A stretch of DNA of 64,000 bases from the IMG/VR virus record IMGVR_UViG_3300041405_000148, positions 89,310-153,309 of that record; one strand, written 5' to 3'. Positions 10,135 to 63,749 of the stretch are shown here, in pieces (within the stretch, counting starts at the first letter, position 1; the number at the start of each line of letters is the position of its first letter). The notes under the pieces were generated by a model. It did no database searches. It was not told the DNA's origin and worked only from the letters and a program-made list of their open reading frames with translations. Source of the DNA: a virus. Taxonomy: Duplodnaviria; Heunggongvirae; Uroviricota; Caudoviricetes. A program made the position numbers and the translations under genes.

Positions 10135-10253
10135 TTTTAAAACCCTTTAGAGAGTGGTTGGCGGTATTGCCTCCCGATGAAAAGAGTATAGCAAAAAGCC
10201 CGGAAAGGCGTCAACCCCTCCAGGCTAAAAAGATTGGATTATTTTCAGATTAT

Positions 10254-10884: not shown

Positions 10885-11089
10885 ATCATAGTGAGCGGGT
10901 AGATCAACTATTCTTTTGTAAAGATTTAGAAACGAGAATCATTCTTATCTAGTAAATAACGTCCAGGCTCGGTGTTTGTCTCCGCCTGCTACCAGGTGCG
11001 CCGTTCGATATACAGCATAACAAAAAGGCCCAAATCGGTCAAGCCTTGAGCCTCTTTTATTTCCATCCTTTAAACTACCTTTCAAAGAA

Positions 11090-13750: not shown

Positions 13751-13852
13751 TTAATTTTCTCACACTACAGGCTAACCGTTAGCCCGTCTCTATGTGTAGT
13801 AATATACAGAAAAGCCGCTAAGGCGTCAACCCCAGCGGCTAAGATATTCCAA

Positions 13853-14214: not shown

Positions 14215-14254
14215 GCTCTGAGTTCTAATCTACAGAACTCAGAGAGATAAGTCA
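14215..14254 (-). promoter_or_regulatory. sigma70-type promoter TTGACT-N17-TAGATT with the -10 hexamer in the loop of an 11-bp perfect hairpin
   Basis: Minus strand reads TTGACTtatct CTCTGAGTTCT gTAGATT AGAACTCAGAG. Confidence 0.6.
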
Positions 14255-14265
14255 ATCACTTTTAT

Positions 14266-14454
14266 TTACCTCTTTGTTTCTTTCCATTCACCTGTCCAGA
14301 AGTAAATGAAAAACGGCGCCGCTATTACACAAGTATAAACCATGTAATCAAAAGAGGATTTTTTAGTCCCAGCATCTAAAGGTAAACAAAGACAAACAAA
14401 AGCTTGCATTATCCCTAAAAACGTGATAACTAAGATTATACTTGATTTACTCAT
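14266..14454 (-). CDS. small membrane protein (62 aa)
   Basis: ORF preceded by a hairpin-type promoter. Confidence 0.45.
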   Translation of the reverse strand: MSKSSIILVITFLGIMQAFVCLCLPLDAGTKKSSFDYMVYTCVIAAPFFIYFWTGEWKETKR

Positions 14455-14620
14455 GATCCACCTTCACCAGGATATCAAAGCCAAAATTTTCATTTGATAG
14501 ACGTTCTAAAATGGTGTAGCCCTTTGTTTCTATTTCAGCATGAATACCTTTTGACGTCCAGGCAGAAAAGAAACGTTTACGGGTATTATCATCAACTAAA
14601 TGAAAATGTTTATCATTCAT
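14447..14620 (-). CDS. small hypothetical protein (57 aa)
   Basis: ATG ORF (MNDKHFHLVDD...) whose stop overlaps the start of the downstream gene. Confidence 0.3.
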   Translation of the reverse strand: MNDKHFHLVDDNTRKRFFSAWTSKGIHAEIETKGYTILERLSNENFGFDILVKVDHE

Positions 14621-14772
14621 GTTTAAGATCCTCGATCAACTCTTCGATTTTAATAACACAGCCTGCAATAAAAACCATCGTAATGATAAAGATTAATAGT
14701 GGCATGTTCTTACCCTCTTTTGTTTCGATATAAGAAGAATATCATAACTAAAACGAGAGTCAAGGGTTTTTA

Positions 14773-14976
14773 TTAATCTTTGTAGATTTTTATTCTTACA
14801 TAGCTATTAGCTGGATATTCAACCTCGTAATAAGTAAGCTCTTCCGAAGATAACTCTTTTTCCAGATGTAAAGTGGTTGTTGTACTATTATGCACAGCAC
14901 CTATAATGATTTCACCGCTAACCAGTTCGTCATAATCTCGAACATCTTGGATCTTGATAAGTTTTCGTTCAAACAT
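14773..14976 (-). CDS. hypothetical protein (67 aa)
   Basis: ORF. Confidence 0.4.
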   Translation of the reverse strand: MFERKLIKIQDVRDYDELVSGEIIIGAVHNSTTTTLHLEKELSSEELTYYEVEYPANSYVRIKIYKD

Positions 14977-15176
14977 TAGATTGCCTTTATCTGAATTACT
15001 TTAGAAAGTTCTACCCGATTTGATAAGTTATCAACATAAATGAATTCGAGTTCATTTTCAACTAAAATTTGATTGCTTAAACAAATACCCCAGACCCTAA
15101 AATTATATTCATCACGATATTGCACTTTGTTGCGTTTGCTGCTAGTCAACATAGCCTCTACCTTTTCTTTTTGCAT
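14976..15176 (-). CDS. hypothetical protein (66 aa)
   Basis: ORF. Confidence 0.4.
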   Translation of the reverse strand: MQKEKVEAMLTSSKRNKVQYRDEYNFRVWGICLSNQILVENELEFIYVDNLSNRVELSKVIQIKAI

Positions 15177-15439
15177 TAGATCATACCTTTTAAACTAGGG
15201 CTTGACAAACGAAAGAGATCATGCACTACAGGCGCAAGCTTCTTTTGCACTTCTGCTGCACTCTTAGCGTTAATAATTGTCCTTTCTGGCTTGTGACCGT
15301 CTACAAAGTGCATCACAAAGCCACGGGCAGACTTTTGGCAGATCATATCAATAACGTTTGAACCTTTACGGAAAGTGATCCCGCCACGGTTGATAGTTGC
15401 GGTAATATCAGCGTTTAAGTTTTGCAAGTAGATAGACAT
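15176..15439 (-). CDS. hypothetical protein (87 aa)
   Basis: ORF. Confidence 0.45.
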   Translation of the reverse strand: MSIYLQNLNADITATINRGGITFRKGSNVIDMICQKSARGFVMHFVDGHKPERTIINAKSAAEVQKKLAPVVHDLFRLSSPSLKGMI

Positions 15440-15682
15440 TTGAACCTCGTTAGGATTAAGTTGACTTCTAAGGTAAGATTAACACATTTGAGCAATAAAG
15501 CAAGCTTTAGAGTAAATAATTTACACGCCAGTAATTCTTAGTCACTCTATAACGTCCTAGAAACGATTCTAAGGGCTTTTAAAGTTAACAAGTACCATCG
15601 GCAGGATTTAGATTAAAAGTTGCTTACGATCGTTTCTAGACCCATAGAAATGACAAAGCCAGGTTTTACCCTGGCTCTTAGT

Positions 15683-15826
15683 TATGCTGCATAGGCTTCA
15701 CTACGCTTTTCGCTTCTGTCTCTTCGGGTTTTGTTGCGCTTATCTCCCTTGCGTCCTTGCCCTTCTTCTGTCCAGTCTAATTTTTTACGGGACTGAATTT
15801 TTTCAAAGTTTTTAAAGTTTTCCATT
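15683..15826 (-). CDS. small basic protein (47 aa)
   Basis: ATG ORF (MENFKNFEKIQSRKK...), Lys/Arg-rich. Confidence 0.3.
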
Positions 15827-15834
15827 GACTACCC

Positions 15835-16149
15835 TTATTTAATGTTGAATGCAGAATTTAAATCGCTTTTTAAAGCTTCATTGAATTTAGAATACTCATA
15901 ATCATAAAGATCAAACATATCCTCTTCAGAACCTTGCCCTATGACAGTGAAATCAATAACCTCCCGAACCATAACCCGGCTACGTAGTCCAGCCTGGTGA
16001 GTCAAGTTATTTTCATGATCCATCACAGGACATAAAACCGTCTCACCTGAAGATAATGTGTACTTCATTACGTAGAAAGTTTTATTCTCTCTTTCATTTA
16101 GTACCCATCGCCTTATGGCATTTGATACTATATCTTTGATCTTTGACAT
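15835..16149 (-). CDS. hypothetical protein (104 aa)
   Basis: ORF. Confidence 0.45.
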   Translation of the reverse strand: MSKIKDIVSNAIRRWVLNERENKTFYVMKYTLSSGETVLCPVMDHENNLTHQAGLRSRVMVREVIDFTVIGQGSEEDMFDLYDYEYSKFNEALKSDLNSAFNIK

Positions 16150-16152
16150 ATT

Positions 16153-16587
16153 TTATTCTTCCATAGAGTCTACTACAGCCCTTGCGATTTCTTCTACAAC
16201 AGCTTTGCAAGCTACATCAAAGACTTGATCAACCGCGTCACCTTTACCAGTATACAATGCTTGATTGATTTCTTCAATGGTGTATTGTGAGACTAAATCC
16301 CATTTATCCATCATAGAACCAACAGAATCATGATCATAATAATATTCCTCTGACAAAGATTTCAGCCAAGATTTAATTGCTGGCGCGTGGTTGCGGAAAA
16401 ATTTCACGCTGTCAGTGTAATAGATAAAGCTGATACCCGTGTTAGCACCATACTTGCTAATGTCACTAGAAATCTCTTTAAACTCATCCCATCCACCATG
16501 CCAGCGAACAATAGCACGGATAAGAGTTGCATCGATGTTAGAGTTTTCGATAACAGTTGACAGCTTCAGAGATTTTAAAGTTTTCAT
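16153..16587 (-). CDS. hypothetical protein (144 aa)
   Basis: ORF. Confidence 0.5.
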   Translation of the reverse strand: MKTLKSLKLSTVIENSNIDATLIRAIVRWHGGWDEFKEISSDISKYGANTGISFIYYTDSVKFFRNHAPAIKSWLKSLSEEYYYDHDSVGSMMDKWDLVSQYTIEEINQALYTGKGDAVDQVFDVACKAVVEEIARAVVDSMEE

Positions 16588-16685
16588 AGCATTTTCCTAG
16601 TTAGTGCTGTTTAAGTTGGAAGGTTATTTCTCTTCCTGTTGGCCGCTATTATCTAACAGCCAATCAGCAGAGTCAACAACTATTT

Positions 16686-17051
16686 TTAATTATTTTCTTC
16701 GTTGTTTTCGGCTTGCTCTTCAGCCTCTTCTAATTCAGATTCCAGATCCTCTAACTCACTTTCCAGATCTTCTAACTCTGAATATAAATCGCGGTATTCT
16801 TCCACACCGTTTAAATCAATGTTAGATTCATAATCAGACTTGCCGCAACGATACGCAACAGGATCACAATTTTTAATAATGTCTGAAGGGTAAAACTCCA
16901 TACCTCCAACACTCACAGCCCCTTCACAATCCAAAAATTCATCGTATTCTGATTCTGTAGCTTCATATTCAAAAGCTTCTACTTCCTGTTGCTTTTCGGA
17001 AACTTCCAGTTTTTTGGCTTCAATTGCTGCTTTCAGAGTTGCGATAGTCAT
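16686..17051 (-). CDS. acidic coiled-coil protein (121 aa)
   Basis: LEDLESELEDLESELEE repeats. The GGCGGGAA-tag-TTCCCGCC hairpin lies in its 5' leader. Confidence 0.45.
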   Translation of the reverse strand: MTIATLKAAIEAKKLEVSEKQQEVEAFEYEATESEYDEFLDCEGAVSVGGMEFYPSDIIKNCDPVAYRCGKSDYESNIDLNGVEEYRDLYSELEDLESELEDLESELEEAEEQAENNEENN

Positions 17052-17138
17052 TTTCTTTTCTCTTTGATTTGGCGGGAACTATTCCCGCCTTGTTGATAGA
17101 TACTTTAATTGTTTTCTTTGTTGCCGTCAATCTTTATT

Positions 17139-17438
17139 TTAAAATTCTTCTGCTTCATTTTCCCAGGGATCGCCGTAAGCGCTTTCAATATCAGAATAAC
17201 ATTCATCACAAACAAGTGGCGCACCTTCCCAGTGGATAGCTATTTGTTGTGGAACTAAACCACAACCATCCCTTAGCCCTTCTAACAACTCCACAAATTT
17301 TTCTTTTGTGCAACTTGAACATAAGCATCCGCCTTCCTCTGTTACTAATACTTTTGGATAAGAACCAATAGAAGTAAAAGGATTACGGGCGAAAGATTTT
17401 ACATCTGCGATCAGTTCAATGTTTTCTGAGATTTTCAT
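17139..17438 (-). CDS. Cys-rich protein (99 aa)
   Basis: CxxC motifs. Confidence 0.45.
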   Translation of the reverse strand: MKISENIELIADVKSFARNPFTSIGSYPKVLVTEEGGCLCSSCTKEKFVELLEGLRDGCGLVPQQIAIHWEGAPLVCDECYSDIESAYGDPWENEAEEF

Positions 17439-17526
17439 TTTCTTGCCTTAGTTGTGAGGTTGTTATCTGATAAAATCTATTCTACCTTAACCGCTAAGGA
17501 TTGCAAGCGGTTAAGAGAAAATAGTT

Positions 17527-17760
17527 TTAGTTTGATGCAAGATTATCAAAATAAGATTGAGGCTTGACAATTACATTTTTACCGCCATTACTTAACCATG
17601 CATTAATATGGCGTGTTGTGGTGTTTGAATACTTGCGGTCTGTTTTATAACTTACCCCGTCAAAGATCGCCGCCACTGGTGTTTCGTAAGAAAAGAAAAC
17701 CTCGCAACCGCTTGACAGTGTAACAACAGTTTGATTTGCAGCTAAGGATTGAATACGCAT
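17527..17760 (-). CDS. hypothetical protein (77 aa)
   Basis: ORF. Confidence 0.4.
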   Translation of the reverse strand: MRIQSLAANQTVVTLSSGCEVFFSYETPVAAIFDGVSYKTDRKYSNTTTRHINAWLSNGGKNVIVKPQSYFDNLASN

Positions 17761-17834
17761 TTTATTAATCTCTGTTTGTGTTGGTTAAAGAATCTTAGCA
17801 AAGAGCCTGCTTTATTGCAAGCCCTTTTAGAAGA

Positions 17835-18038
17835 TTATTTACGGCGGGTTAATGTGCCTTTGCCGTCATTGTGGATTAACTGGACGCCCCATCCATTCTT
17901 ATCTTTAACATCCTGCTTAACAGTGATTGAGGTTCCTTTTGTACGCTGGCGGAGCATCTTAGCAACGTTGCGGGCTTCTTCACGCTTAGCATAACCAGAC
18001 AGCAGAGAATGAGATTTTACGTTAGCAATGTTGAACAT
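17835..18038 (-). CDS. small basic protein (67 aa)
   Basis: ORF. Confidence 0.4.
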   Translation of the reverse strand: MFNIANVKSHSLLSGYAKREEARNVAKMLRQRTKGTSITVKQDVKDKNGWGVQLIHNDGKGTLTRRK

Positions 18039-18080
18039 GATATATACCTTTTGGTTTTGGGTTGATTTAACTTTTTCTCT

Positions 18081-18117
18081 ATGCCCTGTATTCTAACAGG
18101 GCATAACGATAAGTCAA
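18081..18117 (-). promoter_or_regulatory. sigma70-type promoter TTGACT-N16-TAGAAT with the -10 hexamer as the loop of a 9-bp hairpin
   Basis: Minus strand reads TTGACTtatcgtt ATGCCCTGT TAGAAT ACAGGGCAT. Confidence 0.6.
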
Positions 18118-18352
18118 GTCTTATTGAACACCGAATTTCTGAATTCCTACAGGAGAAAGATCGGAGTAATTTTCATCAATAAAGGCTTGAGCGCTATCCT
18201 CTGAATCAAAAACACCTTGTACCGGGCAAGTTTGGTTATCAAAATCCACAACTACAAATACGGCATTGTTCATCTTATTTACCTTTTCAGTTTAGGCGCT
18301 GCACCATTGCCGCGCCTTGTGTGAGTAATTATCGGTTATTTGGTTTTAGTTG

Positions 18353-18565
18353 TCAACAGAAAATCAAAGAAAATTTGTAAGTTGAGTCAGATAATTTGTA
18401 TTCGGTCTGATTGCGAACGTCAGCGACTTTATAGAGACGGCCTTTAATCTGCATTAAATCTTTAATATCCTCTAAGTTTTTAACCCCTGTAATATCTTTG
18501 TTAAAAACTTCAGAATCACAAAATAACACTTGATTTGCTTGTTTAATTTTGGATTGAATATTCAT
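18353..18565 (-). CDS. hypothetical protein (70 aa)
   Basis: ORF. Confidence 0.4.
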   Translation of the reverse strand: MNIQSKIKQANQVLFCDSEVFNKDITGVKNLEDIKDLMQIKGRLYKVADVRNQTEYKLSDSTYKFSLIFC

Positions 18566-18818
18566 TTTAATTTCCTTTTTAACTGGTTAGTGTTTCTCTT
18601 ACTTGATAGCCCTTATCTTAAAGGGCTATCTGATAAGAGTCAACTGATCTCTTCTAATTTTTCTATTCGCCAGGAGTATTTAGTTAGCTTGCTTAACATC
18701 ATGCAACCTTCCGCATGATTTAACGGCGAATCATTCATGATCACTTTAACGCCTGTTTTATTGTTGACTACCACGACATTGTACTTTCTCATTGTTTCGG
18801 CTCCTGGTTTCTCTTCTC

Positions 18819-18856
18819 TATAGCGCCCATTATAGAACGCTATAACGAAAAGTCAA
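18819..18856 (-). promoter_or_regulatory. sigma70 consensus promoter TTGACT-N16-TATAAT with the -10 inside a TATAGCG/CGCTATA hairpin
   Basis: Minus strand reads TTGACTtttcgt TATAGCG ttcTATAATggg CGCTATA, followed by AGGAG and the ATG of a roughly 50-aa ORF. Confidence 0.6.
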
Positions 18857-19086
18857 CGATTATTTTTAATAATACAATTCATATTCACTAATGTGAAACT
18901 TCTGCCCTCTTTTGTAATCACTTCAATAACTCTTGTACCGTTGCCGATGATATTATAATCCTTGACATCGCCAGAGAACACTAATGAACCACCAGAATAA
19001 CACTCTATTTCTACAACTGGTAACACCGCACTAACTTGCATTGTAGCCAAAAGTAATGGGAACAGACCAACTTTAAAAAATTTCAT
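18853..19086 (-). CDS. secreted protein (77 aa)
   Basis: Signal peptide MKFFKVGLFPLLLATMQVSA. Confidence 0.45.
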   Translation of the reverse strand: MKFFKVGLFPLLLATMQVSAVLPVVEIECYSGGSLVFSGDVKDYNIIGNGTRVIEVITKEGRSFTLVNMNCIIKNNR

Positions 19087-19096
19087 CGTTTTAACC

Positions 19097-19306
19097 TTAA
19101 AGATAATAAACCGCTGTTACATCATGGCGAGTGCATCCACCGTTGGTAGAGATAGTAACATTTTTGATACCGTATGCAAGATCTTTTTTCAGATACCAAT
19201 CTTCAGCGCCGATACGCTCAAAGCGTCCGCAAACCTTGGCAAAGTAGCGATAATTGCCCGTCTTATCATTCTTAGTCCGACGTAACTCAGAAGTGTAACG
19301 TGTCAT
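19097..19306 (-). CDS. hypothetical protein (69 aa)
   Basis: ORF downstream of the 19351-19387 promoter. Confidence 0.45.
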   Translation of the reverse strand: MTRYTSELRRTKNDKTGNYRYFAKVCGRFERIGAEDWYLKKDLAYGIKNVTISTNGGCTRHDVTAVYYL

Positions 19307-19350
19307 AGTATAACCTCAGGTAATGTTAGGGGTTTATGTTTCTCTTGTTT

Positions 19351-19387
19351 CTGAGTCCTATTATAAGGACTCAGTGACCAAAGTCAA
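19351..19387 (-). promoter_or_regulatory. sigma70 consensus promoter TTGACT-N16-TATAAT with the -10 as the loop of a 9-bp hairpin
   Basis: Minus strand reads TTGACTttggtca CTGAGTCCT TATAAT AGGACTCAG. Confidence 0.65.
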
Positions 19388-19597: not shown

Positions 19598-19837
19598 TTT
19601 CTTATCTCAATTAGGGTAAACAGGTTTAACAACATAGCGCACAGCGCCATAAGCATTATCACGGTTATCGGCTGCACGTGTTGCACCGTTGCGAGTCTTG
19701 CACGTCTTGACGACAAAGCCAGTTTGTGAATCTACAACCTGATAGCTACTTGCTGTTTTCATCTTAGTCCCTAATTAGTTTTTGCTGTTTTGATAAGAAC
19801 AAGTATATGTTATTATTCGGTCAAGTCAATTAATTTT

Positions 19838-21465: not shown

Positions 21466-21494
21466 TTGACGCCAGGCGCAAGCCTGGTTATACT
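21466..21494 (+). promoter_or_regulatory. promoter TTGACG-N17-TATACT with a ccaggc-gca-agcctgg hairpin in the spacer
   Basis: Seen directly upstream of the 21524 gene. Confidence 0.5.
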
Positions 21495-24181: not shown

Positions 24182-25060
24182 CTACGCCAACCTTTTAAAC
24201 ATTTTAGCCAACTCTGTTACACTCAGCCCCATTTCAACTGACAATGCACTGATCTTATGCCCAAACTGTTCATCAACAACTGCCATGTTTTCACGTGTAA
24301 CAGGCTTCTCTTTGTCCAAGACGAGCACAAACTTGCTTGCATTATCTAAGACTTTACCTGAGAATGAACACGTCTTACGTCCCAGACGGGCTTTAAACTC
24401 AGCGTAGTTGATTGAAAACTCCATGCCATCTTTGGCTACGATCTCAGCCAGAGTTGCGTAATAACGTGCCACACGAACATCATCTGGAAGTTTGTAGGTG
24501 GTTTTCTTTTGAGTTGGTGCTGGTACGGCTTCGACTTTTGACATTGCTTTCTCCTCAATATTTGTATCTTCAATTTCTTGTTCAAGAATAACGCTTACCA
24601 CTGACTCTTGTAAATCGCTAAAGTGATTTTTGTAGAGATCTGTAGTAGGATTATAATTCATATCTGCCCGATACTTCTGCCTTAAGTGATCAAGATACTC
24701 TGGTGTTAGCTTTGTACGTAGAGCATCCAGGATCTCCAAAGAATCTTTACGGACACGGAAAGCTTTCACGTGACTCTTATCCAGCAAAGAATCCTTCATC
24801 TGGTTAGCTTGTTCACAAGTCAAACATAGATTACCCGGTTCATAACCAAGCTTATCATTAATACGTTCAATGGTTGGGACACGTTTATCTGTGAATGGTA
24901 AGCCTGTGTAATCACAATGACCTGAATTACGCTCAAACAGTACACGTAAGTCATTATGGTCTAAAGAAAACTTAATGCCACGTTTGTTTGCATTTGACAA
25001 TTTAGCTTTGTGCTTAGCATTTAATTTAGTAGTTGAGATTTTCATGTTGTCTCCTTTCAT
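24182..25060 (-). CDS. HNH homing endonuclease
   Basis: HCDYTGLPF...PTIERIND...GYEPGNLCLTCEQANQMK. An HNH motif with Zn-ligand cysteines. Confidence 0.7.
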   Translation of the reverse strand: MKGDNMKISTTKLNAKHKAKLSNANKRGIKFSLDHNDLRVLFERNSGHCDYTGLPFTDKRVPTIERINDKLGYEPGNLCLTCEQANQMKDSLLDKSHVKAFRVRKDSLEILDALRTKLTPEYLDHLRQKYRADMNYNPTTDLYKNHFSDLQESVVSVILEQEIEDTNIEEKAMSKVEAVPAPTQKKTTYKLPDDVRVARYYATLAEIVAKDGMEFSINYAEFKARLGRKTCSFSGKVLDNASKFVLVLDKEKPVTRENMAVVDEQFGHKISALSVEMGLSVTELAKMFKRLA

Positions 25061-43672: not shown

Positions 43673-43732
43673 ATTTACTTGACTTAAGATTCTGATGAGG
43701 TATACTTACCTCATCAAGACAACAAAGAGGAA

Positions 43733-44018: not shown

Positions 44019-44993
44019 ATGACGCATCACTTCGGTTTTCCAATGCTGGACATTATCGTCCTTGTATCGGTTCTTATTTTATCAATTGGAGTTGACTTCC
44101 TAGGTCATAAAGATGGAAAAGAAATTGGGATTAAATCTGCTCTAGCTTGGTCAGGTTTTTGGATTGCACTAGCCTTAGGCTATTATGCCTTTGTGTGGGT
44201 TGAATATGGAAAAGAATTTGCATCTATGTTTCTTAGCGGTTATGTGCTTGAGAAATCATTGAGTGTTGATAACCTGGTTGTTTTTGCAGCTATCTTTGCA
44301 AGCTTTGGTATTCGTAGTACAGCACTGCAACATAAGATTCTGCTCTTGGGGATTGCAGGTGCAATTATTTTCCGAGGTATCTTTGTTGCACTAGGTACGG
44401 AATTGTTTCATCTTCACTGGTCAGTTCAGATCTTTTTTGGTATAATCGTAGCATGGTCTGCGTATGCAATCATTAAAGGTGGTGATGAAGAGGAAGAGGT
44501 CGATTATACAAAGCATTGGGCTGTTAAGTGGGTTAATAAGATTATCCCAGTAGGTGGCACTAACGGTGACAAGCTAATCACAAAAGTCGGTAAAAAATGG
44601 TATGCTACTCCTGCACTCGTTTGTGTGGCTGTTGTTGAGCTGACAGATATTATGTTCTCACTAGATAGTGTACCTGTGGTTATCTCAGTGACCCAAGAAC
44701 CTCTGCTAGTTTATTCAGCAATGCTGTTTGCAATCTTAGGTCTTCGTGCTCTGTATTTTGTACTCAGTGTTGCGATGAAGTACTTGGTTCATCTGGAAAA
44801 GGCTGTAGCTCTTGTTCTAGTGTTTGTTGGTGGTAAGATGATTTACCATGCAATGAATGAACAGTTCCACCTGAGCACCTTTGATATCTCTGTTAACGCA
44901 AGTTTGTATGTTGTACTGGGCACACTTGCAGCAGGCGTTATTGCGAGTCTGGTGTTTCCAAACAAGGAACCTGAAGAAGAAACTATCGTATAA
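44019..44993 (+). CDS. terC: TerC family integral membrane protein
   Basis: Multi-TM protein with the EKSLSVDNLVVF signature of the TerC family. Confidence 0.8.
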   Translation: MTHHFGFPMLDIIVLVSVLILSIGVDFLGHKDGKEIGIKSALAWSGFWIALALGYYAFVWVEYGKEFASMFLSGYVLEKSLSVDNLVVFAAIFASFGIRSTALQHKILLLGIAGAIIFRGIFVALGTELFHLHWSVQIFFGIIVAWSAYAIIKGGDEEEEVDYTKHWAVKWVNKIIPVGGTNGDKLITKVGKKWYATPALVCVAVVELTDIMFSLDSVPVVISVTQEPLLVYSAMLFAILGLRALYFVLSVAMKYLVHLEKAVALVLVFVGGKMIYHAMNEQFHLSTFDISVNASLYVVLGTLAAGVIASLVFPNKEPEEETIV

Positions 44994-45001
44994 TCAACAA
45001 A

Positions 45002-45024
45002 AGCCCCCATCAAGGGGCTTTTTA
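45002..45024 (+). terminator. rho-independent terminator
   Basis: agcccc-catcaa-ggggct followed by ttttt. Confidence 0.7.
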
Positions 45025-45042
45025 ATTGAGAAGGGGCTTGCA

Positions 45043-45216
45043 TGGCTAAGTATATTGAGGTAACATTGGTTGTAGAAATTCCAGATGTTGCAGAAGAAAA
45101 AGATATCAAAGATTTCGTAGATGTTCATTTTGCAGAATGCAATAGTATGCAGATGAACAATCCGATTCAGGATAATTATGAAATCGTAGAGCATTACTGG
45201 GAAATTTCCCAATAAT
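45043..45216 (+). CDS. small hypothetical protein (57 aa)
   Basis: ATG ORF (MAKYIEVTLVVEIPD...). Confidence 0.3.
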
Positions 45217-45243
45217 TAGATTCTTAGTATAAGAGGAGCTAAA

Positions 45244-45447
45244 ATGAAAAAGTTTTTTAACATTTTGTGGGTGATTTATACATGCGTTGCTGAGATTGTT
45301 GGTACATTTATCATTATCATGTTTATTCTTTCTTTGTTTGGTCATGGTAAGTTTGAGGTTGGTCACGGTAATTGGCAGCAATGTTTCGGTGATTGCCAAA
45401 AAGTTGAACAAAACTCTGTTAATCCTGTAAAAGAAGAGGTAAAATAA
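45244..45447 (+). CDS. small membrane protein (67 aa)
   Basis: TM helix. Confidence 0.4.
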   Translation: MKKFFNILWVIYTCVAEIVGTFIIIMFILSLFGHGKFEVGHGNWQQCFGDCQKVEQNSVNPVKEEVK

Positions 45448-45938
45448 TGACTCAAGAATATGTTAAATGTCTTAGTAAATTTTCTGGTGTAACTGTGGGT
45501 GAAGTTTATCCTATTGTTCAGCGTGAAGAGAATTCTTTTTGTCTAATCAATGATGCTGGCAAACAAGATGTTTGGTGGCTAGCTGATGGTGAGTTTGAAT
45601 TAGTTGATGGGCCTGAAGAAGTTAAGGAAGAGAGTAAAGCCACTCGTGAAATGAAGTTCTCAACTAAAGAAGGATCTGCTGTTGTCCATTATAAATCAGG
45701 TCAGACTTTCCATATCAGTTATCTGACACATATGGTAGTGGCAGGAAGTAGAGTTCAGGTAACACGTGAGTATACTCAGGATGGTATAGAGTTTTCTCAA
45801 ACTGCATACATCCCTTTTGAAAAGTTCGGTAAGGTTATTTGTCAAGCTTATAATGGAGAGTTAGAAATAACACTTTCCAAAGATGGAAAACTGAGTTATC
45901 CTACAGTTGTAGAAAAGAAAGAAATGTTCTTTAACTAA
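45447..45938 (+). CDS. hypothetical protein (163 aa)
   Basis: ORF. Confidence 0.5.
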   Translation: MTQEYVKCLSKFSGVTVGEVYPIVQREENSFCLINDAGKQDVWWLADGEFELVDGPEEVKEESKATREMKFSTKEGSAVVHYKSGQTFHISYLTHMVVAGSRVQVTREYTQDGIEFSQTAYIPFEKFGKVICQAYNGELEITLSKDGKLSYPTVVEKKEMFFN

Positions 45939-45963
45939 TTAAATAAACTAAGAGGAAATAAAC

Positions 45964-46671
45964 ATGACTAAACTATCACTTGAAAAACGTACCGAAAATG
46001 TTAAACTATCTCTGGAGAAAGCTGGTGTTCAGCGTAAAGATATCTGTGTCCGTGTAGGTCTGGCACTTGATAAATCTGGTTCAGCTGAAATCTTTTATCA
46101 CAACGGTCAGTTTGAAGAGTTGGTTGACCGACTGCTGCCAGTCAGCGCAAATATGGATGATGATGGCACGATTGACACTTGGCTGTTCCACAATGAATCT
46201 ATGGAAGTTGGTCCAGCTACACCTAAAAATTATGGTAGCTTTATCTCCAAAGAAGTTATGCAGGGTAAATACCGCAGTGATTGGGGTGGCACAGAATATG
46301 CACCAGTTATGAAAGATATTCATCACTTTTACTTTGGTTATGAGCAGAAGAGAAGTTTCTTTGGTTTCGGTGGTGGCAAGAAAGCTGTAACTGATTCAAA
46401 TATCCCTGCTTTGGTGTTCTTCATCACAGATGGCGCTAACAGCGACCATTCTGAGACCATCAAACTGCTTGACAGCATTAAAGATGAGCCTGTATACTGG
46501 ATGACAGTTGGTGTTGGCCGGGAAGACCAGTTTACTTTCCTGAAACAGATTGCTTCCCGTTATGATAATGTTGGTTTTGTTAATTTCAGTAATCTGAACA
46601 TCAGTGATGATGAAATGTATAATGCCATTCTGGATGGTGAACTGGCTGAGTGGATTAATAAAGTTTGCTAA
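45964..46671 (+). CDS. vWA domain protein (ter-associated, TerY-like)
   Basis: MIDAS residues: LDKSGSA (DxSxS), TEYAP (T), FITDGANSD (DG). Confidence 0.6.
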   Translation: MTKLSLEKRTENVKLSLEKAGVQRKDICVRVGLALDKSGSAEIFYHNGQFEELVDRLLPVSANMDDDGTIDTWLFHNESMEVGPATPKNYGSFISKEVMQGKYRSDWGGTEYAPVMKDIHHFYFGYEQKRSFFGFGGGKKAVTDSNIPALVFFITDGANSDHSETIKLLDSIKDEPVYWMTVGVGREDQFTFLKQIASRYDNVGFVNFSNLNISDDEMYNAILDGELAEWINKVC

Positions 46672-46958
46672 GGAGCACTAATATGACTAAAGAAGAATAC
46701 CTAGAGCAACTGAAGGTTGGTGATACCCTTACACGCTTCTTTCATGGCGCAGGATTTGTTACCCAAGGTGAAGAAATGGAGGTTGTTCATCTAACAGATT
46801 CTCGCATCTGGTTAGAAGAAAAAATGGAAAATCAGGTTGACTATAAAGCAGATAGTGTTTATAGTTATGACAGAAAAACAGGTAAACAATATACTGATCA
46901 ATTTAGCTTTGGTATGTATCACACTATTGAACTGCCAAACTCTAAAGCCCCCGACTAA
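46665..46958 (+). CDS. hypothetical protein (97 aa)
   Basis: ORF. Confidence 0.4.
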   Translation: MLRSTNMTKEEYLEQLKVGDTLTRFFHGAGFVTQGEEMEVVHLTDSRIWLEEKMENQVDYKADSVYSYDRKTGKQYTDQFSFGMYHTIELPNSKAPD

Positions 46959-46987
46959 TAATTTTTTAACAAAAGAGGAAATAAAAT

Positions 46988-47569
46988 ATGTCACTTAATC
47001 TGCAAAAAGGTTCTTCCCTGAAACTGACTAAAGATGATGGTAAAACTGCCCTAAATCGTATTCGTGTAGAGCTGTCTTGGAACCCTAACGAAGGATCTTC
47101 GCAGTATTCGTTTGACTTGGATGTAATCGGTGCAGTTTGTAAGAATGAGAATCTGCAAGCTGTTTCTGGTGAACATGTTGCTTTCTTTAATCAGAAGAAT
47201 ACTGCGGCTATCCAGGTATCCCCTGATAATACAACTGGTGCTGGCGATGGTGTAGATGAGTTCCTGGATATTACTCTGAACAATGTTCCGGTAGAAGGTG
47301 ACCGAATCCCAGTCCTGGTATGTATTTATGGTGCTCGTGGCAAGAATCAGAGTTTTTCTCAGGTAGATGGTGCAACAGTTGTGCTGCGTGATCTGGATAA
47401 CGGTAAAGTAGTTGGTTCTTGTAACATCTCTGAGAAAGGCTCATCTACAGATGAATCTCTGCTGGTAGGTGTTTTTGAGAAGCAGTCTGATGGCTCTTTT
47501 GTTTACAATCAGGTGAACGAGTTTTACAATAAGAGTTTTGAAGAGTGGATTGGTGTTTTCACTAACTAA
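46988..47569 (+). CDS. terD: TerD-domain protein
   Basis: MSLNLQKGSSLKLTKD...RVELSWNP...DLDVIGAV...GDG. This is the TerD/CABP fold signature. Confidence 0.75.
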   Translation: MSLNLQKGSSLKLTKDDGKTALNRIRVELSWNPNEGSSQYSFDLDVIGAVCKNENLQAVSGEHVAFFNQKNTAAIQVSPDNTTGAGDGVDEFLDITLNNVPVEGDRIPVLVCIYGARGKNQSFSQVDGATVVLRDLDNGKVVGSCNISEKGSSTDESLLVGVFEKQSDGSFVYNQVNEFYNKSFEEWIGVFTN

Positions 47570-47587
47570 GAGCAAATAAATAGATTA

Positions 47588-47614
47588 AGGCCCTTGTTTA
47601 GGAGGGCCTGTTTT
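47588..47614 (+). terminator. rho-independent terminator
   Basis: aggccc-loop-gggcct followed by gtttt. Confidence 0.5.
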
Positions 47615-47639
47615 AACAAAGATAAAGGAGATACTTAAC

Positions 47640-48230
47640 ATGGCAATTACTTTGGAAAAAGGTTCTAAACTCTCTCTGGATAAGTTCCAGGCATCAGACC
47701 TTAAAGTCCTTCGTGTAGAAATGACGTGGGATGCACCAGAAACCACAGGTTCAAAGTTCAAAACTTATGACTACGATTTGGATGTTATTGCTTTCATTAT
47801 TGATGAGAACAAAAAAGCTGTAAATAACTATAAACATTTTTGCTTCTTTGGACAGCAAGTCACCCCAGCAATCGAGAGTTCTGGTGATGACCTGAATGGT
47901 GAAGATGGTGGTGAATCCCTTCTGATCACACTGGATAATGTGCCAAAGAATGGTGTACAGATCCCTATCATCGTTGACTTACACAAGGCTAAAGAGCGTA
48001 AACAAAATCTGTCTCAGATGAAATCAGGTAACCTGCGTATCCTGAACCATGACACAGATGAGCTACTGGCTGAAGTAAACATGAGTCAGTTTGCAAGCAA
48101 CGAAACATCTTTCCTGTTTGCTTTCATCAACCGTACTGCAACAGGTTTTGAGGTAGAAAGTGCTCCAACAGGGTTTGATAAAAACATTCAGGATTGGGTT
48201 GATCTTTATGGAATTGACTTGAGCAAGTAA
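47640..48230 (+). CDS. terD: TerD-domain protein (second copy)
   Basis: MAITLEKGSKLSLDKF...RVEMTWD...DYDLDVIAF...GEDGG. Confidence 0.75.
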   Translation: MAITLEKGSKLSLDKFQASDLKVLRVEMTWDAPETTGSKFKTYDYDLDVIAFIIDENKKAVNNYKHFCFFGQQVTPAIESSGDDLNGEDGGESLLITLDNVPKNGVQIPIIVDLHKAKERKQNLSQMKSGNLRILNHDTDELLAEVNMSQFASNETSFLFAFINRTATGFEVESAPTGFDKNIQDWVDLYGIDLSK

Positions 48231-48250
48231 TCTTTAAGTGGTAATATCAA

Positions 48251-48273
48251 TGGGTGACAATAAGTCACCCATA
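48251..48273 (+). promoter_or_regulatory. perfect hairpin atgggtgac-aataa-gtcacccat (terminator or regulatory stem)
   Basis: 9-bp perfect stem. The following T-tract is weak. Confidence 0.35.
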
Positions 48274-48290
48274 TTAATTTCAGGAGTCTT

Positions 48291-49178
48291 ATGAGCACCG
48301 ATTATAAAAACCTTTTTAATACAAAGAAAGATTATTCTAATCTGTTTTCTAATAAGGAAAATACCCAATCACAACCTAAGCAGGAAAGAAACATGGCATA
48401 TAAAAATTTATTTGATAATGTTGTCAATGAAACAAAACCTGCAAGGGTTCAAACAACATTACCTCAAAAAGTTGTTGACCCACGAGTTGCTGATATACAA
48501 GCAATTGACCCTAAGATCAGCACACATGCAGTCATCGAATGGCTTGAAGCTTTTGATGACAACATGAAAAAGTTAACCCAAACTAATCATGGACTCTCTC
48601 AAAGAGAACTGGATTTGGCTATGGAATTCACTGATGGAAGACTCTGTGTCCAAGAGCTTTTTAATCAGATCAAGGCAACAGTTGCAACGCTGAAAGGGCC
48701 AGAAAAGAAAACAGGGTTTCTATCAAAGCTCTTTAACTCAGATCAAGAGTTTAAATTAAGTCAAGATTTGATCACACAAGTTATTCAGACAATTAGAAAA
48801 CTATTAGAAGATTTCAAAAATAAGTCTAAATATAATAATAGTATGTTTATTAAATCTGAGATGCGTAGGATCGAATCAAACATTTTTGATTTGAAAAGTG
48901 AATTGGAGTGTGCTAGAGTAGCTGCAACTTACTTAGTCAATCAAGATGATTTTAAAGGTGCAGCAAGACTTGAAAAGGTTAAGCAACTCTCAGGGTTAGT
49001 GAATGTCTCAGAGTTGCAATTAAAAAATACTTACAATCTTCTTGAGAAAGATATGGAAGCATATGAGAACTTAAAAGACGTGACAGTACCTTTTTTGTAT
49101 GCTAAGATCCAAGGATTAATGAGTAGTACTTTAGATTCTGAAGCACTCAATGTTATTAACGATATAAATAAACTCTGA
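48291..49178 (+). CDS. TelA-like (toxic anion resistance) family candidate (295 aa)
   Basis: All-helical protein with N-terminal Y(K/S)NLF repeats. Position is between terD and the HAD/PRTase genes. Sequence match to TelA not verified. Confidence 0.3.
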   Translation: MSTDYKNLFNTKKDYSNLFSNKENTQSQPKQERNMAYKNLFDNVVNETKPARVQTTLPQKVVDPRVADIQAIDPKISTHAVIEWLEAFDDNMKKLTQTNHGLSQRELDLAMEFTDGRLCVQELFNQIKATVATLKGPEKKTGFLSKLFNSDQEFKLSQDLITQVIQTIRKLLEDFKNKSKYNNSMFIKSEMRRIESNIFDLKSELECARVAATYLVNQDDFKGAARLEKVKQLSGLVNVSELQLKNTYNLLEKDMEAYENLKDVTVPFLYAKIQGLMSSTLDSEALNVINDINKL

Positions 49179-49189
49179 GGAGAGACACT

Positions 49190-50269
49190 ATGTCATACGG
49201 CAACCTTTTTACAACAGAAACAAAAACTGAATCACAGGCTACTAAGCCAACTAGTTTTGAACAGTCAGTTAAATCACTCCCTGTCCTTAAGGATGCAGAA
49301 GGTAAAGTTTACCCAATGGAGTTGAAAGACATTCAGAATTTTGGTATTGTTAAAAACTCAAAACAATCTGAAATCAATAACCAAATTCTGTCAAAGACAT
49401 TGGTCGCAGATAGTGGTGTAATGGCCCAGGGTTTTACTCAGATCATGGCGCTTTCCCAAAAAGTAGATATTGGATCTCTCTCTGATGGTAAAGTTGGCCT
49501 GTTTAAATCTATTCGTAATAAGTTTATTGATCGAAAAGCTGAGGTTAAAGCACAGTTTACAACTGTTCGGAGTCAGATCACAACCATTGCTTCGGAACTA
49601 AAGAACAACATTGTAGAGATGCAGAAAGAAGGTCAGTGGCTTGACCAAATGTACAAAGTCAATCTTGAAGAAGTACGTATGTGGGAACAAAACAAGGTTT
49701 TGGTTAATGAAGCCTTTACTACAGCAGAAGAATATTTGAAACATCTTGTTGACAATGGAGCACCAATAGAGCAAATTGAAGAGACACGGATGAAAGTTAA
49801 TGCGTTGAGCAAGCAAAGTGATAAAGTTAATAAAATGCATCAGCTTAGTGCTATTGCAGCGCCTGAGATCAGGATGATGCAGGTAACAAATTTCAACAAT
49901 ATTAATAAGTTTAATGACATTATTGAATTAACTATCCCATATTGGGAAAAGAAAATGTCACTTGCACTAAATGCTGAGAATCAGCGCAAGCAGATCGCAC
50001 AAGCAAAAATTATGGATGACTTCACTAATGATTTAATCAAAGAAACTGCTAAACAGGTTGGACAAAACATGGTAGAGTCAGCTAAAGCAAACCAGCGTGG
50101 TATTGCTGATGTAGATGTAATGGTAGAGGCAACAAACGTGATCATCAACTCTATTAAAGAGGTTGTTGAGATTGATAAAGAAGGGAATAATACCCGTAAA
50201 GAGAACGCCAAGAAGATTGAAAAATCGTTGGTTGACATGGAAGATACTCTACGGTCAGTACTTTCTTAA
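49190..50269 (+). CDS. TelA-like protein (359 aa)
   Basis: Size and helical character fit TelA/KlaA. N-terminal YGNLF motif shared with the upstream gene. Sits in ter context. Confidence 0.4.
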   Translation: MSYGNLFTTETKTESQATKPTSFEQSVKSLPVLKDAEGKVYPMELKDIQNFGIVKNSKQSEINNQILSKTLVADSGVMAQGFTQIMALSQKVDIGSLSDGKVGLFKSIRNKFIDRKAEVKAQFTTVRSQITTIASELKNNIVEMQKEGQWLDQMYKVNLEEVRMWEQNKVLVNEAFTTAEEYLKHLVDNGAPIEQIEETRMKVNALSKQSDKVNKMHQLSAIAAPEIRMMQVTNFNNINKFNDIIELTIPYWEKKMSLALNAENQRKQIAQAKIMDDFTNDLIKETAKQVGQNMVESAKANQRGIADVDVMVEATNVIINSIKEVVEIDKEGNNTRKENAKKIEKSLVDMEDTLRSVLS

Positions 50270-50289
50270 AAATACTTAGGAGAACTAAA

Positions 50290-50937
50290 ATGATTTTATC
50301 TTTTGATGTATGGAATACACTGCTGTCGGCTAACCCTGAGTTTAAAACTGCACGTATTGACGCTATTGTTTCTGAAACAGGTCTACCTAAGATTGCTGTA
50401 GCCACAAAGCTGCGTGACACCAAACGTGTACTCGACTTCATTCAAGAAGATACTGGCAAAGCTTTTACATCTTTATTTTGTTGGAAGCTGTTCTTGAAAC
50501 ATGTGAATTATGAAGGAGATATTGATGAAATGGGGAGGACTTTACTGGAAATCTCAAATACTTTGTTTGTAAGGTATCCTCCATCTTTTGATGTTGAGTT
50601 GGTAAAGGTAATTCGTAAAATGAAGAAGGGCATGTCACACATTGATGAGATAGTACTAGTGAGCAATACTAACTTCGTACCAGGTAATCTACTTTGGACA
50701 ACTTGTTTTGAACACCTAGATTTGTTTGATAGTGCATTCTTTTCAGATCAGTGGGGTGTTGGTAAACCAAGTGAAGAAGCTTTCGCTCGTGGTTGGCCTT
50801 TAATTTGTGGTCGGAAAGTGATTCATGTAGGGGACACTATTGTCACTGATGGTGCTTGTACAAAGTATGGTGCAGAATTTATCTTGGTAAAAGATCCATC
50901 AGACACACTTAAACGCTTGACAGAGTTTACGGTCTAA
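50290..50937 (+). CDS. HAD-superfamily hydrolase (ter-linked phosphatase)
   Basis: Motif I FDVWNTL (the second Asp is replaced by Trp), motif II VLVSNT, motif III GKP, motif IV GDTIVTD. Confidence 0.55.
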   Translation: MILSFDVWNTLLSANPEFKTARIDAIVSETGLPKIAVATKLRDTKRVLDFIQEDTGKAFTSLFCWKLFLKHVNYEGDIDEMGRTLLEISNTLFVRYPPSFDVELVKVIRKMKKGMSHIDEIVLVSNTNFVPGNLLWTTCFEHLDLFDSAFFSDQWGVGKPSEEAFARGWPLICGRKVIHVGDTIVTDGACTKYGAEFILVKDPSDTLKRLTEFTV

Positions 50938-50976
50938 CGTAACCTTGCTGCAACTTAACTACACAGGAATTAAATA

Positions 50977-51810
50977 ATGAATCAAACTACACAATTTGCT
51001 GTACACTACTTTGATAATCTTGAAGATATGTCATTTTGTCCAAAAGATTACTCCTTCCTAAAGTTCGGTAGCGACAAAGTGGCTAAAAAGTTTGGGTATG
51101 AGTTGGCAGAAGCTTTCTTTCAAGAACATAAAAGTCGATTGGTTGCGGAGCAATTTGTTGTGATCCCTTCTCCGTATAATTATGTTAAGAATGCTGCAAC
51201 CATTATGTCAGAGCACTTTGTAGACCGTTTAAATCATCTTGTAGTAAGTGCGGGAGGTTTGCATGTAGAATGGAGTACTATTAACCGTAAGATGTCTTAC
51301 ATTAAAGATTATGGCTTCCTGTCAGCAGACGAAAGGAAGAAACTTATTGATGGGGACACTTTTCATGTGAATAAAGGCTATCTGGAAGGTAAAAACCTTA
51401 TTTTCATTGACGATGTAAACATCACTGGTACACATGAAAGGAAGTTAGAAGAGATTCTGGATGAAAGTCAAGTTTTTAATGATAGATTTTTCTTATATTA
51501 TGGTAAATTTGTTGATAGTGGTAAAGCTGGCGCTGACATTGAATCTAAAATCAACTTTGCAGGTATTCAAGATTTAGAGGATTTTGTAAAGTTAACCAAG
51601 GAACCTAATCACCAAATTATTGTAAGACCTATAAAATTCTTGTTGTCAAGGACTCCAAATAAATTTGAACAGTTTGTAGATTTGGTGGATGAAGAATTCT
51701 TATGTAAACTTTATTATGGTGCTATTGCAGAAGGTTATTATAACATTCCTGATTATAAGTTAAACCTGAATTATTTAAATTGGTACATCCAGAAAGAAGA
51801 AAACAAATAA
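50977..51810 (+). CDS. phosphoribosyltransferase (PRTase) domain protein
   Basis: PRPP-binding loop NLIFIDDVNITGT. Confidence 0.6.
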   Translation: MNQTTQFAVHYFDNLEDMSFCPKDYSFLKFGSDKVAKKFGYELAEAFFQEHKSRLVAEQFVVIPSPYNYVKNAATIMSEHFVDRLNHLVVSAGGLHVEWSTINRKMSYIKDYGFLSADERKKLIDGDTFHVNKGYLEGKNLIFIDDVNITGTHERKLEEILDESQVFNDRFFLYYGKFVDSGKAGADIESKINFAGIQDLEDFVKLTKEPNHQIIVRPIKFLLSRTPNKFEQFVDLVDEEFLCKLYYGAIAEGYYNIPDYKLNLNYLNWYIQKEENK

Positions 51811-51834
51811 TTGTCATTTAAAAGAGGAAAAATA

Positions 51835-55559: not shown

Positions 55560-55845
55560 TTGGAGGATTTCATGTTAAAATCAGGAATGAAGTTAAGATG
55601 TTCAGGTCTAGGTGGGAACCCGGATTTTAAACCAGGTACTGTTTACACAGTTATTGAAGTGGTTGATGAAAATGAAAGTCCTTATTTAGTTACAATTCGT
55701 GATGATGGTGGATTTTTGTGCCATTGTTTAATTTCACCAACACACCGATGCCCTCATGCAGGGGAGTGGGAAATTATAAGTTGACTTTTACTTGGAGGGA
55801 TTCTACAATCCCTCTTGTTAAAAGAAATCACATTTTGGAGTTACG

Positions 55846-63505: not shown

Positions 63506-63749
63506 TTTTATAAGGGAGGGGTCTTTATGTTTTTAGTCTTTTTATTTACACTTAACTTGATAACGATTGTGTTGAGTTACTGTGCTTTTGGCCTGACTTA
63601 TCTTGGCTTTTTTATTTTCATGCAATTTGTTTTTGGTTACATCATTTACCTAGAAAATAAAGCCAAAAATTAAAATAATTATTGACAGGAGGTTCAAGAT
63701 TTGCTATTATGAGCCTTCTGGAACTCAACTTAAATTAAAGAGGATACTA

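Follow-up and report, generated by a model that had tools for sequence, protein, structure and literature searches.

Hairpins centred on the -10 box of early promoters in a Stephanstirmvirinae-like phage and their likeness to promoter early stem-loops

Why should a strong early promoter carry its -10 hexamer in the loop of a perfect hairpin? This question is raised by a 64,000-nt stretch of Caudoviricetes DNA (IMG/VR record IMGVR_UViG_3300041405_000148, positions 89,310 to 153,309), referred to below, in its whole length, as the window. Between window positions 14000 and 20000 the minus strand is a run of tiny genes (47–144 aa), and almost every intergenic gap in this block holds a near-consensus sigma70 promoter. 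The initial annotation described four promoters of the block with the -10 hexamer at the apex of an inverted repeat and proposed that cruciform extrusion presents the hexamer as single-stranded, pre-melted DNA. It did not connect the architecture with the promoter-early stem-loops (PeSLs) published for the phages RB49 and phi1 (Arbiol et al. 2010, PMC2839356). Our analysis confirms and extends the observation but does not support the cruciform reading. The hairpins at the -10 boxes are genuine and selected for, and most likely they act in RNA, not as a DNA cruciform.

All four hairpin promoters are found on the minus strand where they had been placed, each with TTGACT 16–17 nt ahead of the -10 hexamer (Table 1; the hexamer is numbered -12 to -7 for all promoter-relative positions). 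Two weaker versions had also been reported. The one at about 16630-16660 is genuine (P16676), and the one at 19790-19800 is marginal (P19829); its AT-rich repeat includes a T.C mismatch and could be a chance occurrence. Additionally, we found one more leftward cassette, P18643, and three plus-strand sites (P43679, P55781 and P63682), all absent from the initial annotation.

Table 1. Promoter-associated hairpins of the window (free energies in kcal/mol)
Feature	Position (strand)	Promoter elements	Hairpin	Folding and remarks
P19387, class A	19351..19387 (-)	-35 TTGACT 19382-19387; -10 TATAAT 19360-19365	9-bp perfect stem 19351-19374; CTGAGTCCT-TATAAT-AGGACTCAG (hexamer = loop), then aaacAAGAGAAAC	RNA -16.1, z -5.4; hairpin covers -21 to +3
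P18856, class A	18819..18856 (-)	-35 18851-18856, holding upstream TGA stop; -10 18829-18834	stem 18819-18844; TATAGCG-ttcTATAATggg-CGCTATA; arms TATAGCGTTC/GGGCGCTATA	RNA -23.2; 10 pairs in RNA (8 Watson-Crick, 2 U.G), hexamer = 6-nt loop
P18643, class A	18605..18643 (-)	-35 18638-18643, holding upstream TGA; -10 TAAGAT 18615-18620	10-bp perfect stem 18605-18630; GATAGCCCTT-TAAGAT-AAGGGCTATC	
P18117, class A	18080..18117 (-)	-35 18112-18117; -10 TAGAAT 18090-18095	10-bp perfect stem 18080-18105; (T)ATGCCCTGT-TAGAAT-ACAGGGCAT(A)	RNA -19.9, z -8.1
P16676, class A	16639..16676 (-)	-35 16671-16676; -10 GATAAT 16648-16653	stem 16639-16663; TTGGCTGTT-aGATAAT-AGCGGCCAA; 7 Watson-Crick and 2 U.G pairs	RNA sense -15.9, antisense -8.0; DNA hairpin -2.3/-4.9
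P14255, class A	14215..14255 (-)	-35 14250-14255; -10 TAGATT 14227-14232	11-bp perfect stem 14215-14243, 7-nt loop; CTCTGAGTTCT-gTAGATT-AGAACTCAGAG	RNA -20.5
P19829, marginal	19793..19829 (-)	TTGACT-N16-TATACT	AT-rich repeat ATAATAACA/TGTTCTTAT 19793-19816	8 Watson-Crick pairs and the T.C mismatch
P43679	43679..43716 (+)	TTGACT-N16-TATACT	stem TGATGAGGTA/TACCTCATCA 43693-43716	first two -10 bases paired in stem
P55781	55781..55814 (+)	TTGACT-N17-TACAAT	stem GAGGGATT/AATCCCTC 55795-55814	last three -10 bases in 3' arm
P63682	63682..63720 (+)	TTGACA-N17-TATTAT	11-pair stem CAGGAGGTTCA/TGAGCCTTCTG 63686-63720 around -10, 2 G.U pairs	RNA sense -17.3, antisense -9.6
-35-in-loop terminator cassette	13801..13840 (-)	-10 TATATT after the T-tract	AGCCGCTGGGG-ttgacg-CCTTAGCGGCT 13813-13840	T-tract in spacer; flagged terminator-like
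similar -35-in-loop terminator	10185-10226		hairpin 10197-10226	flagged terminator-like
similar -35-in-loop terminator	11014-11047		hairpin 11025-11047	flagged terminator-like
-35-enclosing hairpin	17479..17515 (-)	TTGCAA, then -10 TAGAAT	stem CTTAACCGCT/AGCGGTTAAG around TTGCAA, hairpin 17486-17515	no clear T-tract
-35-enclosing hairpin	17800-17827		2 G.U pairs	no clear T-tract
spacer-filling hairpin	21466..21494 (+)	TTGACG-N17-TATACT	CCAGGC-gcaa-GCCTGG 21472-21487	exactly fills the spacer
class B cassette	17071..17130 (-)	TTGACG-N17-TAAAGT	GC hairpin GGCGGGAA-tag-TTCCCGCC 17071-17089	hairpin at about +12
class B-like case	18294-18317			follows P18356

The promoters read TTGACT-N16/17-TA(T/A/G)(A/G)AT, and an independent promoter scan gave them 9–11 points of 12, which agrees with their designation as sigma70-consensus early promoters. 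The 20 nt upstream contain 65–90% A+T, compared with 61.7% for the whole window; this richness is least pronounced at two sites, P18117 and P18643, whose -35 box is reached or entered by coding sequence. The cassettes are intergenic and lie between small genes of 47–144 aa. The last base of the upstream stop codon lies at -31 to -46, the 5' untranslated region measures 30–54 nt and ends in a Shine-Dalgarno sequence and a start codon, and the whole intergenic space amounts to 60–90 nt. In three places on the minus strand (18640-18642, 18853-18855 and 18353-18355), the -35 hexamer of a promoter (TTGACT or TTGACA) contains the TGA stop of the preceding gene, an extremely tight packing of coding and regulatory signals.

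Class A hairpins cover about -22 to +4, with stems of 9–11 bp and loops of 6–8 nt, and the loops of the six leftward cassettes consist of the hexamer, either alone or with one additional base. Folded as RNA, the -10-centred stems reach about -12 to -23 kcal/mol, with z-scores of about -2.5 to -8. No T-run follows any of them, the terminator scan flags none, and their tails are purine-rich. Thus, as previously proposed from the missing U-tract, they are not canonical intrinsic terminators. Terminators in the antisense direction were rejected as well, since the other strand has no T-run either.

The likely start purine falls in the last bases of the 3' arm. A transcript that starts inside this arm has no 5' arm with which to pair, so that the hairpin is present only in read-through RNA coming from upstream. 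Each class A stem (window 14220-19350) is followed by the conserved purine-rich sequence (A)AGAGAAAC, which occupies about +5 to +16 in the predicted transcripts and precedes the real Shine-Dalgarno sequence by 20–35 nt. At P18856 this element pairs in RNA with the spacer sequence CUUUUC, and the extra CUUUUC/GAGAAG pairing lengthens the stem to about 20 pairs with small interruptions. By analogy with T5 N25-type promoters, AGAGAAAC, as an initial transcribed sequence, may help RNA polymerase to leave a very strong promoter.

Are such hairpins more frequent at the -10 box than expected by chance? A perfect stem of at least 7 bp flanks the -10 hexamer in 6 of the 34 TTGAC-N16-18-TAnnnT sites of the window, whereas 2000 shuffles of the flanks gave a mean of 0.04 such sites and a maximum of 2. 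The comparison with shuffled sequence, which the initial annotation had itself suggested, thus reveals enrichment at -10. The centre of the stem coincides with the centre of the hexamer in five cases and is offset by +1 and -2 in two more. As a negative control, we used the pattern TTGACT-N16/17-TANAAT-N9-14-AGAGAAA, whose matches in IMG/VR are chance matches. None of the approximately 120 unrelated IMG/VR loci listed for this promoter and AGAGAAA pattern had a flanking stem longer than 5 bp.

The comparison with related phages provided evidence for selection. We found no close relative of the window in GenBank and no IMG/VR relatives of the 144-aa early protein. The DNA polymerase (PolA) of the window shares 76.7% identity with its counterpart in Klebsiella phage vB_KpM_FBKp34 (FBKp34), which is classified, like KP13-16, in Stephanstirmvirinae (phi92/phAPEC8 group, rV5-related). 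By this measure the source phage is Stephanstirmvirinae-like, a relative of rV5, phi92 and phAPEC8, and not T4-like.

Within the 6-kb region, nucleotide-level conservation is confined to promoter cassettes and a single tiny gene. The 63–65 nt around P18856 are about 95% identical in some 60 Phapecoctavirus records, and a 45-nt stretch at P18117 recurs with 96% identity in KP13-16 and with 91% identity in FBKp34; in the latter, a C-to-T change gives a G.U pair. In KP13-16 and FBKp34 the P18117-like cassette stands upstream of different genes. In general, genes beside conserved cassettes are mostly non-homologous between phages, for most of the small proteins the relatives have no homologue, and the cassettes are 87–96% identical across phages with non-homologous neighbouring genes. 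In metagenomic copies the similarity stops right after AGAGAAAC. Distant BLAST comparison with GenBank phages gave one marginal match for the P43679 cassette and none for that of P19387; both cassettes appear to be private to the source phage.

Changes within the stems preserve pairing. At the position of P18643 (GATAGCCCTT/AAGGGCTATC in the window), FBKp34 has ATGCCTCTT/AAGAGGCAT, KP13-16 has the same arms with one U.G pair, and locus L126 has ATGGCTGT/ACAGCCAT. The stems of FBKp34 and L126 differ by two compensatory C-G to G-C flips. The P18856 family combines the 5'-arm variants GCGCCT, GCGTCC and GCGTTC with an invariant GGGCGC; all of them pair, via U.G, and only C/T changes opposite G occur. 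When 11 cassettes were aligned without gaps, 99.1% of the cells paired and 9 of the 10 stem pairs showed changes on both sides, a result that none of 500 shuffles matched; these sequences were picked for having hairpins, and several are closely related. Slid registers of the same alignment dropped to 27–54% pairing. Paralogous stems are unlike in sequence, and the substitutions in them compensate each other; pairing itself is therefore selected. The earlier suggestion that structure is kept while sequence varies is therefore supported.

The same data bear on a possible operator for a dimeric DNA-binding regulator lying over the -10 box. Dyad symmetry centred on -10 is typical of repressor operators, but here the half-sites are unrelated in sequence between cassettes and only their complementarity is kept. 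We rejected this candidate on that ground and regard it as extremely unlikely.

The mismatches bear on the question in which molecule the pairing matters. Every non-Watson-Crick pair in the -10-centred stems is G.T on the sense strand (about 9 events; 10 cells in the 11-cassette alignment), and A.C does not occur. The complementary strand would accordingly carry A.C mismatches. If the palindrome served as duplex DNA, transitions would be expected to produce as many A.C as G.T mismatches, and the G.T-only pattern therefore speaks against a cruciform. The specific cassette pattern was found in 2 IMG/VR loci and 9 metagenome loci, mostly the same three variants, so the tally of about nine events is small. 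A loose general hairpin scan of the window returned 148 hairpins, mostly due to chance, with 43 G.T and 34 A.C pairs, and is too noisy for inference; by contrast, the G.T bias showed in the promoter-associated intergenic stems specifically.

Folding points in the same direction. Sense RNA is more stable wherever the strands differ by more than 2 kcal/mol (by 12.3 at P18856, 7.9 at P16676, 7.7 at P63682, 3.1 at P18117 and 2.4 at P14255), and the advantage of antisense RNA never exceeds 1.3 kcal/mol. With DNA parameters, perfect stems reach -7 to -9 kcal/mol per strand, and at P16676, P63682 and P18856 one strand or both yield no more than -1 to -5. A hairpin is possible in each of the two DNA strands at P19387, P18643, P18117, P14255 and P43679, but not at P18856, P16676, P63682 and several orthologues.

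These results have to be weighed against a DNA-level promoter device, in which supercoiling extrudes a cruciform or a hairpin of the non-template strand and so presents the -10 box single-stranded, or switches the promoter off at high supercoiling. Such a device would fit the five or six stems that abut the hexamer exactly (centre offset 0) as well as the stability of the perfect stems in DNA, and the G.T-bearing sense strand is the non-template strand, the one read by sigma70. It also has precedents in the supercoil-extruded hairpin promoters of phage N4 and in a palindromic Escherichia coli promoter that, reportedly, Horwitz and Loeb in 1988 found to be regulated by cruciform extrusion. Nevertheless, we consider it unlikely. 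The A.C mismatches of the other strand at P18856, P16676, P63682 and several orthologues, together with the weak DNA hairpins there, argue against it. So does energetics: by standard supercoiling calculations, extrusion of 24–29 bp relaxes about 2.3–2.8 turns, which we estimate to be borderline at the superhelicity of naked plasmids and unfavourable at unconstrained in vivo levels. Additionally, the spacer duplex, on which the -35/-10 geometry depends, would be lost in a cruciform.

Two further observations tell against the pre-melted promoter. In P43679, P55781 and the phi1 PeSLs, the -10 bases that sigma70 must capture unpaired (T-12/A-11, or T-7) are paired in the stem, which means that single-stranded presentation of the hexamer is not conserved. 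Secondly, hairpins equivalent to the -10-centred ones occur in other registers of the same window: around the -35 box, in the spacer or downstream of the start site (Table 1). This suggests that the hairpin belongs to the intergenic cassette and not to the -10 box. In the -35-in-loop terminator hairpins the sense strand folds 6–10 kcal/mol better. Yet another register is seen at 46837-46865 (+), where TTGACT-N17-TATAGT has its -10 box in the 3' arm of an 8-bp repeat (ACTATAAA/TTTATAGT) and the 5' arm overlaps the -35 box.

Why, then, is the hexamer centred so exactly? We suggest a geometric reason: a stem of 9–11 bp is too large for a spacer of 16–17 nt and must straddle a hexamer, and an invariant, non-palindromic hexamer has to go into the loop.

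The downstream register forms a class of its own. The class B hairpin GGCGGGAA-nnn-TTCCCGCC recurs after TTGACA promoters in KP13-16 and ASO2A. More broadly, a second promoter class, TTGACA-N16-TAAACT/TAAGAT followed by a sequence-conserved hairpin, is common to the source phage, KP13-16 and phAPEC8-like phages (L001 and L003, at several sites). This hairpin could be a 5'-terminal stabilising stem-loop. Its copy at 17071-17089 carries a terminator-like flag on the opposite strand.

Taken together, we regard it as probable that the window carries compact PeSL-type cassettes of promoter and stem-loop, in which the hairpin acts in RNA on read-through transcripts and which double as recombination points. 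Each tiny early gene, or group of two to three genes, would have its own near-consensus sigma70 promoter. The hairpin would fold on upstream read-through RNA just past the stop codon and would mark or insulate the 3' end of the upstream cistron, either by attenuation or pausing or as a barrier to 3' exonucleases. As conserved repeats, the cassettes would also serve as recombination points at which small genes are shuffled. Action at the RNA level, like the effect of a U-tract-less hairpin on RNA, is something we infer. With the U-tract missing and proper terminators present elsewhere in the phage, a 3'-end stabiliser or a weak attenuator seems more plausible than efficient termination.

Several points weigh against this interpretation. 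Without a U-tract, efficient termination by E. coli RNA polymerase is not to be expected, which leaves the attenuator role conjectural. Experimental support for attenuation would come solely, and by analogy, from a lacZ assay of one RB49 stem-loop, in another phage family (PMC2839356). The geometric account given above offers an explanation of the exact centring, not a demonstration. Finally, the sense-strand bias consists of about nine events that are not fully independent, and it would equally fit a DNA hairpin formed by the non-template strand only. Under the supercoiling of freshly injected DNA, such a hairpin would make sigma70 promoters supercoil-sensing (pre-melted, or self-inhibited until gyrase acts). 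We think this very unlikely; if true, it would be a host-polymerase analogue of the N4 hairpin promoters.

Sense-strand bias fits any role at the RNA level, including that of a processing signal. Here, RNase III would cut in the stem, or RNase E or a phage nuclease beside it, converting polycistronic early RNA into monocistronic units. The roughly 20 interrupted pairs of P18856 RNA and the conserved AGAGAAAC after the stems would suit this reading, but most stems have 9–11 bp, less than the approximately two helical turns preferred by RNase III, and the P18856 extension is not shared. Moreover, AGAGAAAC does not have the A/U-rich character of RNase E sites and is equally well explained by promoter escape. 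A processing role is thus improbable, and the RNase III handle that the initial annotation had offered as an alternative is weak. As a general RNase III site, the element was rejected because the stems are too short.

Recombination alone was considered as well. The cassettes might be purely recombinational or selfish elements with no role in expression, spread by homologous or site-specific recombination as with PeSL mini-circles. Their 87–96% identity across distant phages beside unrelated genes is what one would expect of such elements, and crossover points have been located within PeSL loops (PMC2839356). However, copying would conserve the sequence of the stem, and yet stems differ between paralogues and carry compensatory substitutions; strand-biased G.T pairs are likewise unexpected for a duplex recombination site. 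There seems to be very little chance that this is the whole explanation.

Other features of the window deserve mention. On the minus strand, a 240-nt gap without open reading frames (15440-15681) opens with a canonical terminator, GAGCCAGG-gtaaaa-CCTGGCTTTGTCATTT (15655-15678). A small RNA or the remains of a gene could lie in this gap; the Rfam scan matched no family there or anywhere else in the window. The 292-aa open reading frame at 24182-25060 (-) matches PHROG families annotated as HNH endonuclease, 'decoy of host sigma70' and 'Srd anti-sigma factor', and from these matches it is probably relevant to how the phage shuts off sigma70 early promoters. On the plus strand, 44019-52755 contains a cluster of tellurite-resistance (TerD-type) and membrane genes. 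Positions 47655-48412 show 74.6% nucleotide identity to the Xanthomonas jumbo phage XaC1.

How do the cassettes compare with known systems? N4, a lytic coliphage, likewise has small hairpins at its early promoters, which are recognised by the virion RNA polymerase. Its hairpins have 5–7 bp stems and 3-nt loops with conserved bases, and form on the template strand to be read by the phage polymerase. In contrast, the window has full sigma70 -35 and -10 elements and loops of 6–8 nt, and the mismatch pattern disfavours a template-strand hairpin, which would contain A.C.

Intrinsic terminators share with the cassettes an RNA hairpin right after the stop codon in a packed phage operon. Terminators that overlap the next promoter are also known from the window itself: the sister cassettes with hairpins at 13813-13840, 11025-11047 and 10197-10226 are exactly such, with the -35 box in the loop and a spacer T-tract. 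The -10-centred hairpins differ in that they have no T/U-tract and are followed by purine-rich sequence. The same bases are annotated as 'promoter' in the GenBank entry of phAPEC8 and as 'rho-independent terminator (WebGeSTer)' in that of ASO2A, and the rV5 paper lists promoters and terminators separately.

Repetitive extragenic palindromic (REP)-type elements and phage 3' mRNA-stabilising stem-loops are likewise stable, U-tract-less hairpins just 3' of a cistron and can block 3' exonucleases, but they are not built into a promoter. By analogy, a role of the window stems in blocking 3' exonucleases on read-through RNA is plausible.

The closest likeness is to PeSLs. These were defined in RB49 and phi1 as elements that lie between the ORFans of hyperplastic regions and are made up of a sigma70-consensus early promoter, AT-rich upstream sequence and a stable stem-loop. 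The stem can be placed upstream, at the -35 box, in the spacer, at the -10 box or downstream; overlap with the -10 box is one of the two commonest positions, and G-T pairs are marked in PeSL stems. One RB49 stem-loop matched rrnB T1 in lowering the expression of a downstream lacZ gene, and recombination between PeSLs shuffles genes (all in PMC2839356). PeSLs were later extended to other T4-like phages, including PST/T4 and nt-1/KVP40 (Comeau et al. 2014, PMC4122927), and in the literature we searched they are discussed only for T4-type phages.

The window cassettes have the same parts: a near-consensus sigma70 early promoter, AT-rich sequence upstream of it, a promoter-overlapping stem-loop in several positions and G.T pairs in the stems. 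They too lie between tiny ORFans, end in a Shine-Dalgarno sequence and ATG, are repeated in the genome and adjoin genes that differ between related phages. Folding of phi1 intergenic regions yielded spacer stems (GGGGATC...GATCCCC) as well as -10-overlapping stems without a U-tract, namely GGGTGTAT-atcata-ATACACCC, GGGGATAT-agcata-ATATCCCC and GGGAGTA-gtaaga-TACTCCC. Additionally, a 14-nt sequence, ATCAAGACAACAAA, stands right after the hairpin both in P43679 (43712-43725, +) and in a phi1 PeSL (L136, upstream of ORF204) and is absent from the rest of the 2.35 Mb of fetched loci. This could mean that unrelated phage families have exchanged a cassette, or that both leaders became CA-rich by convergence.

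There are differences in detail. Window stems are heterogeneous in sequence, whereas RB49 stems have the form G(n)-loop-C(n). In the leftward block the hexamer fills the loop, alone or with one more base, whereas in phi1 it lies partly in the stem. The conserved downstream motif is AGAGAAAC in the window and ataccgaaacga in phi1. Lastly, PeSLs have so far been described in T4-like myoviruses and the source phage is Stephanstirmvirinae-like, a difference of taxonomic range and not of mechanism.

Judged by their sequence, the window cassettes possess all the structural features that define a PeSL, in a host lineage that is new. This extends a cassette described so far only in T4-like phages to myoviruses related to rV5, phi92 and phAPEC8. 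It also sharpens the question of how a stable, U-tract-less hairpin placed exactly over the -10 box affects read-through. The 63-nt cassette, about 95% identical across genera beside unrelated genes, supports the idea that such cassettes are joints for swapping small early genes between phages.

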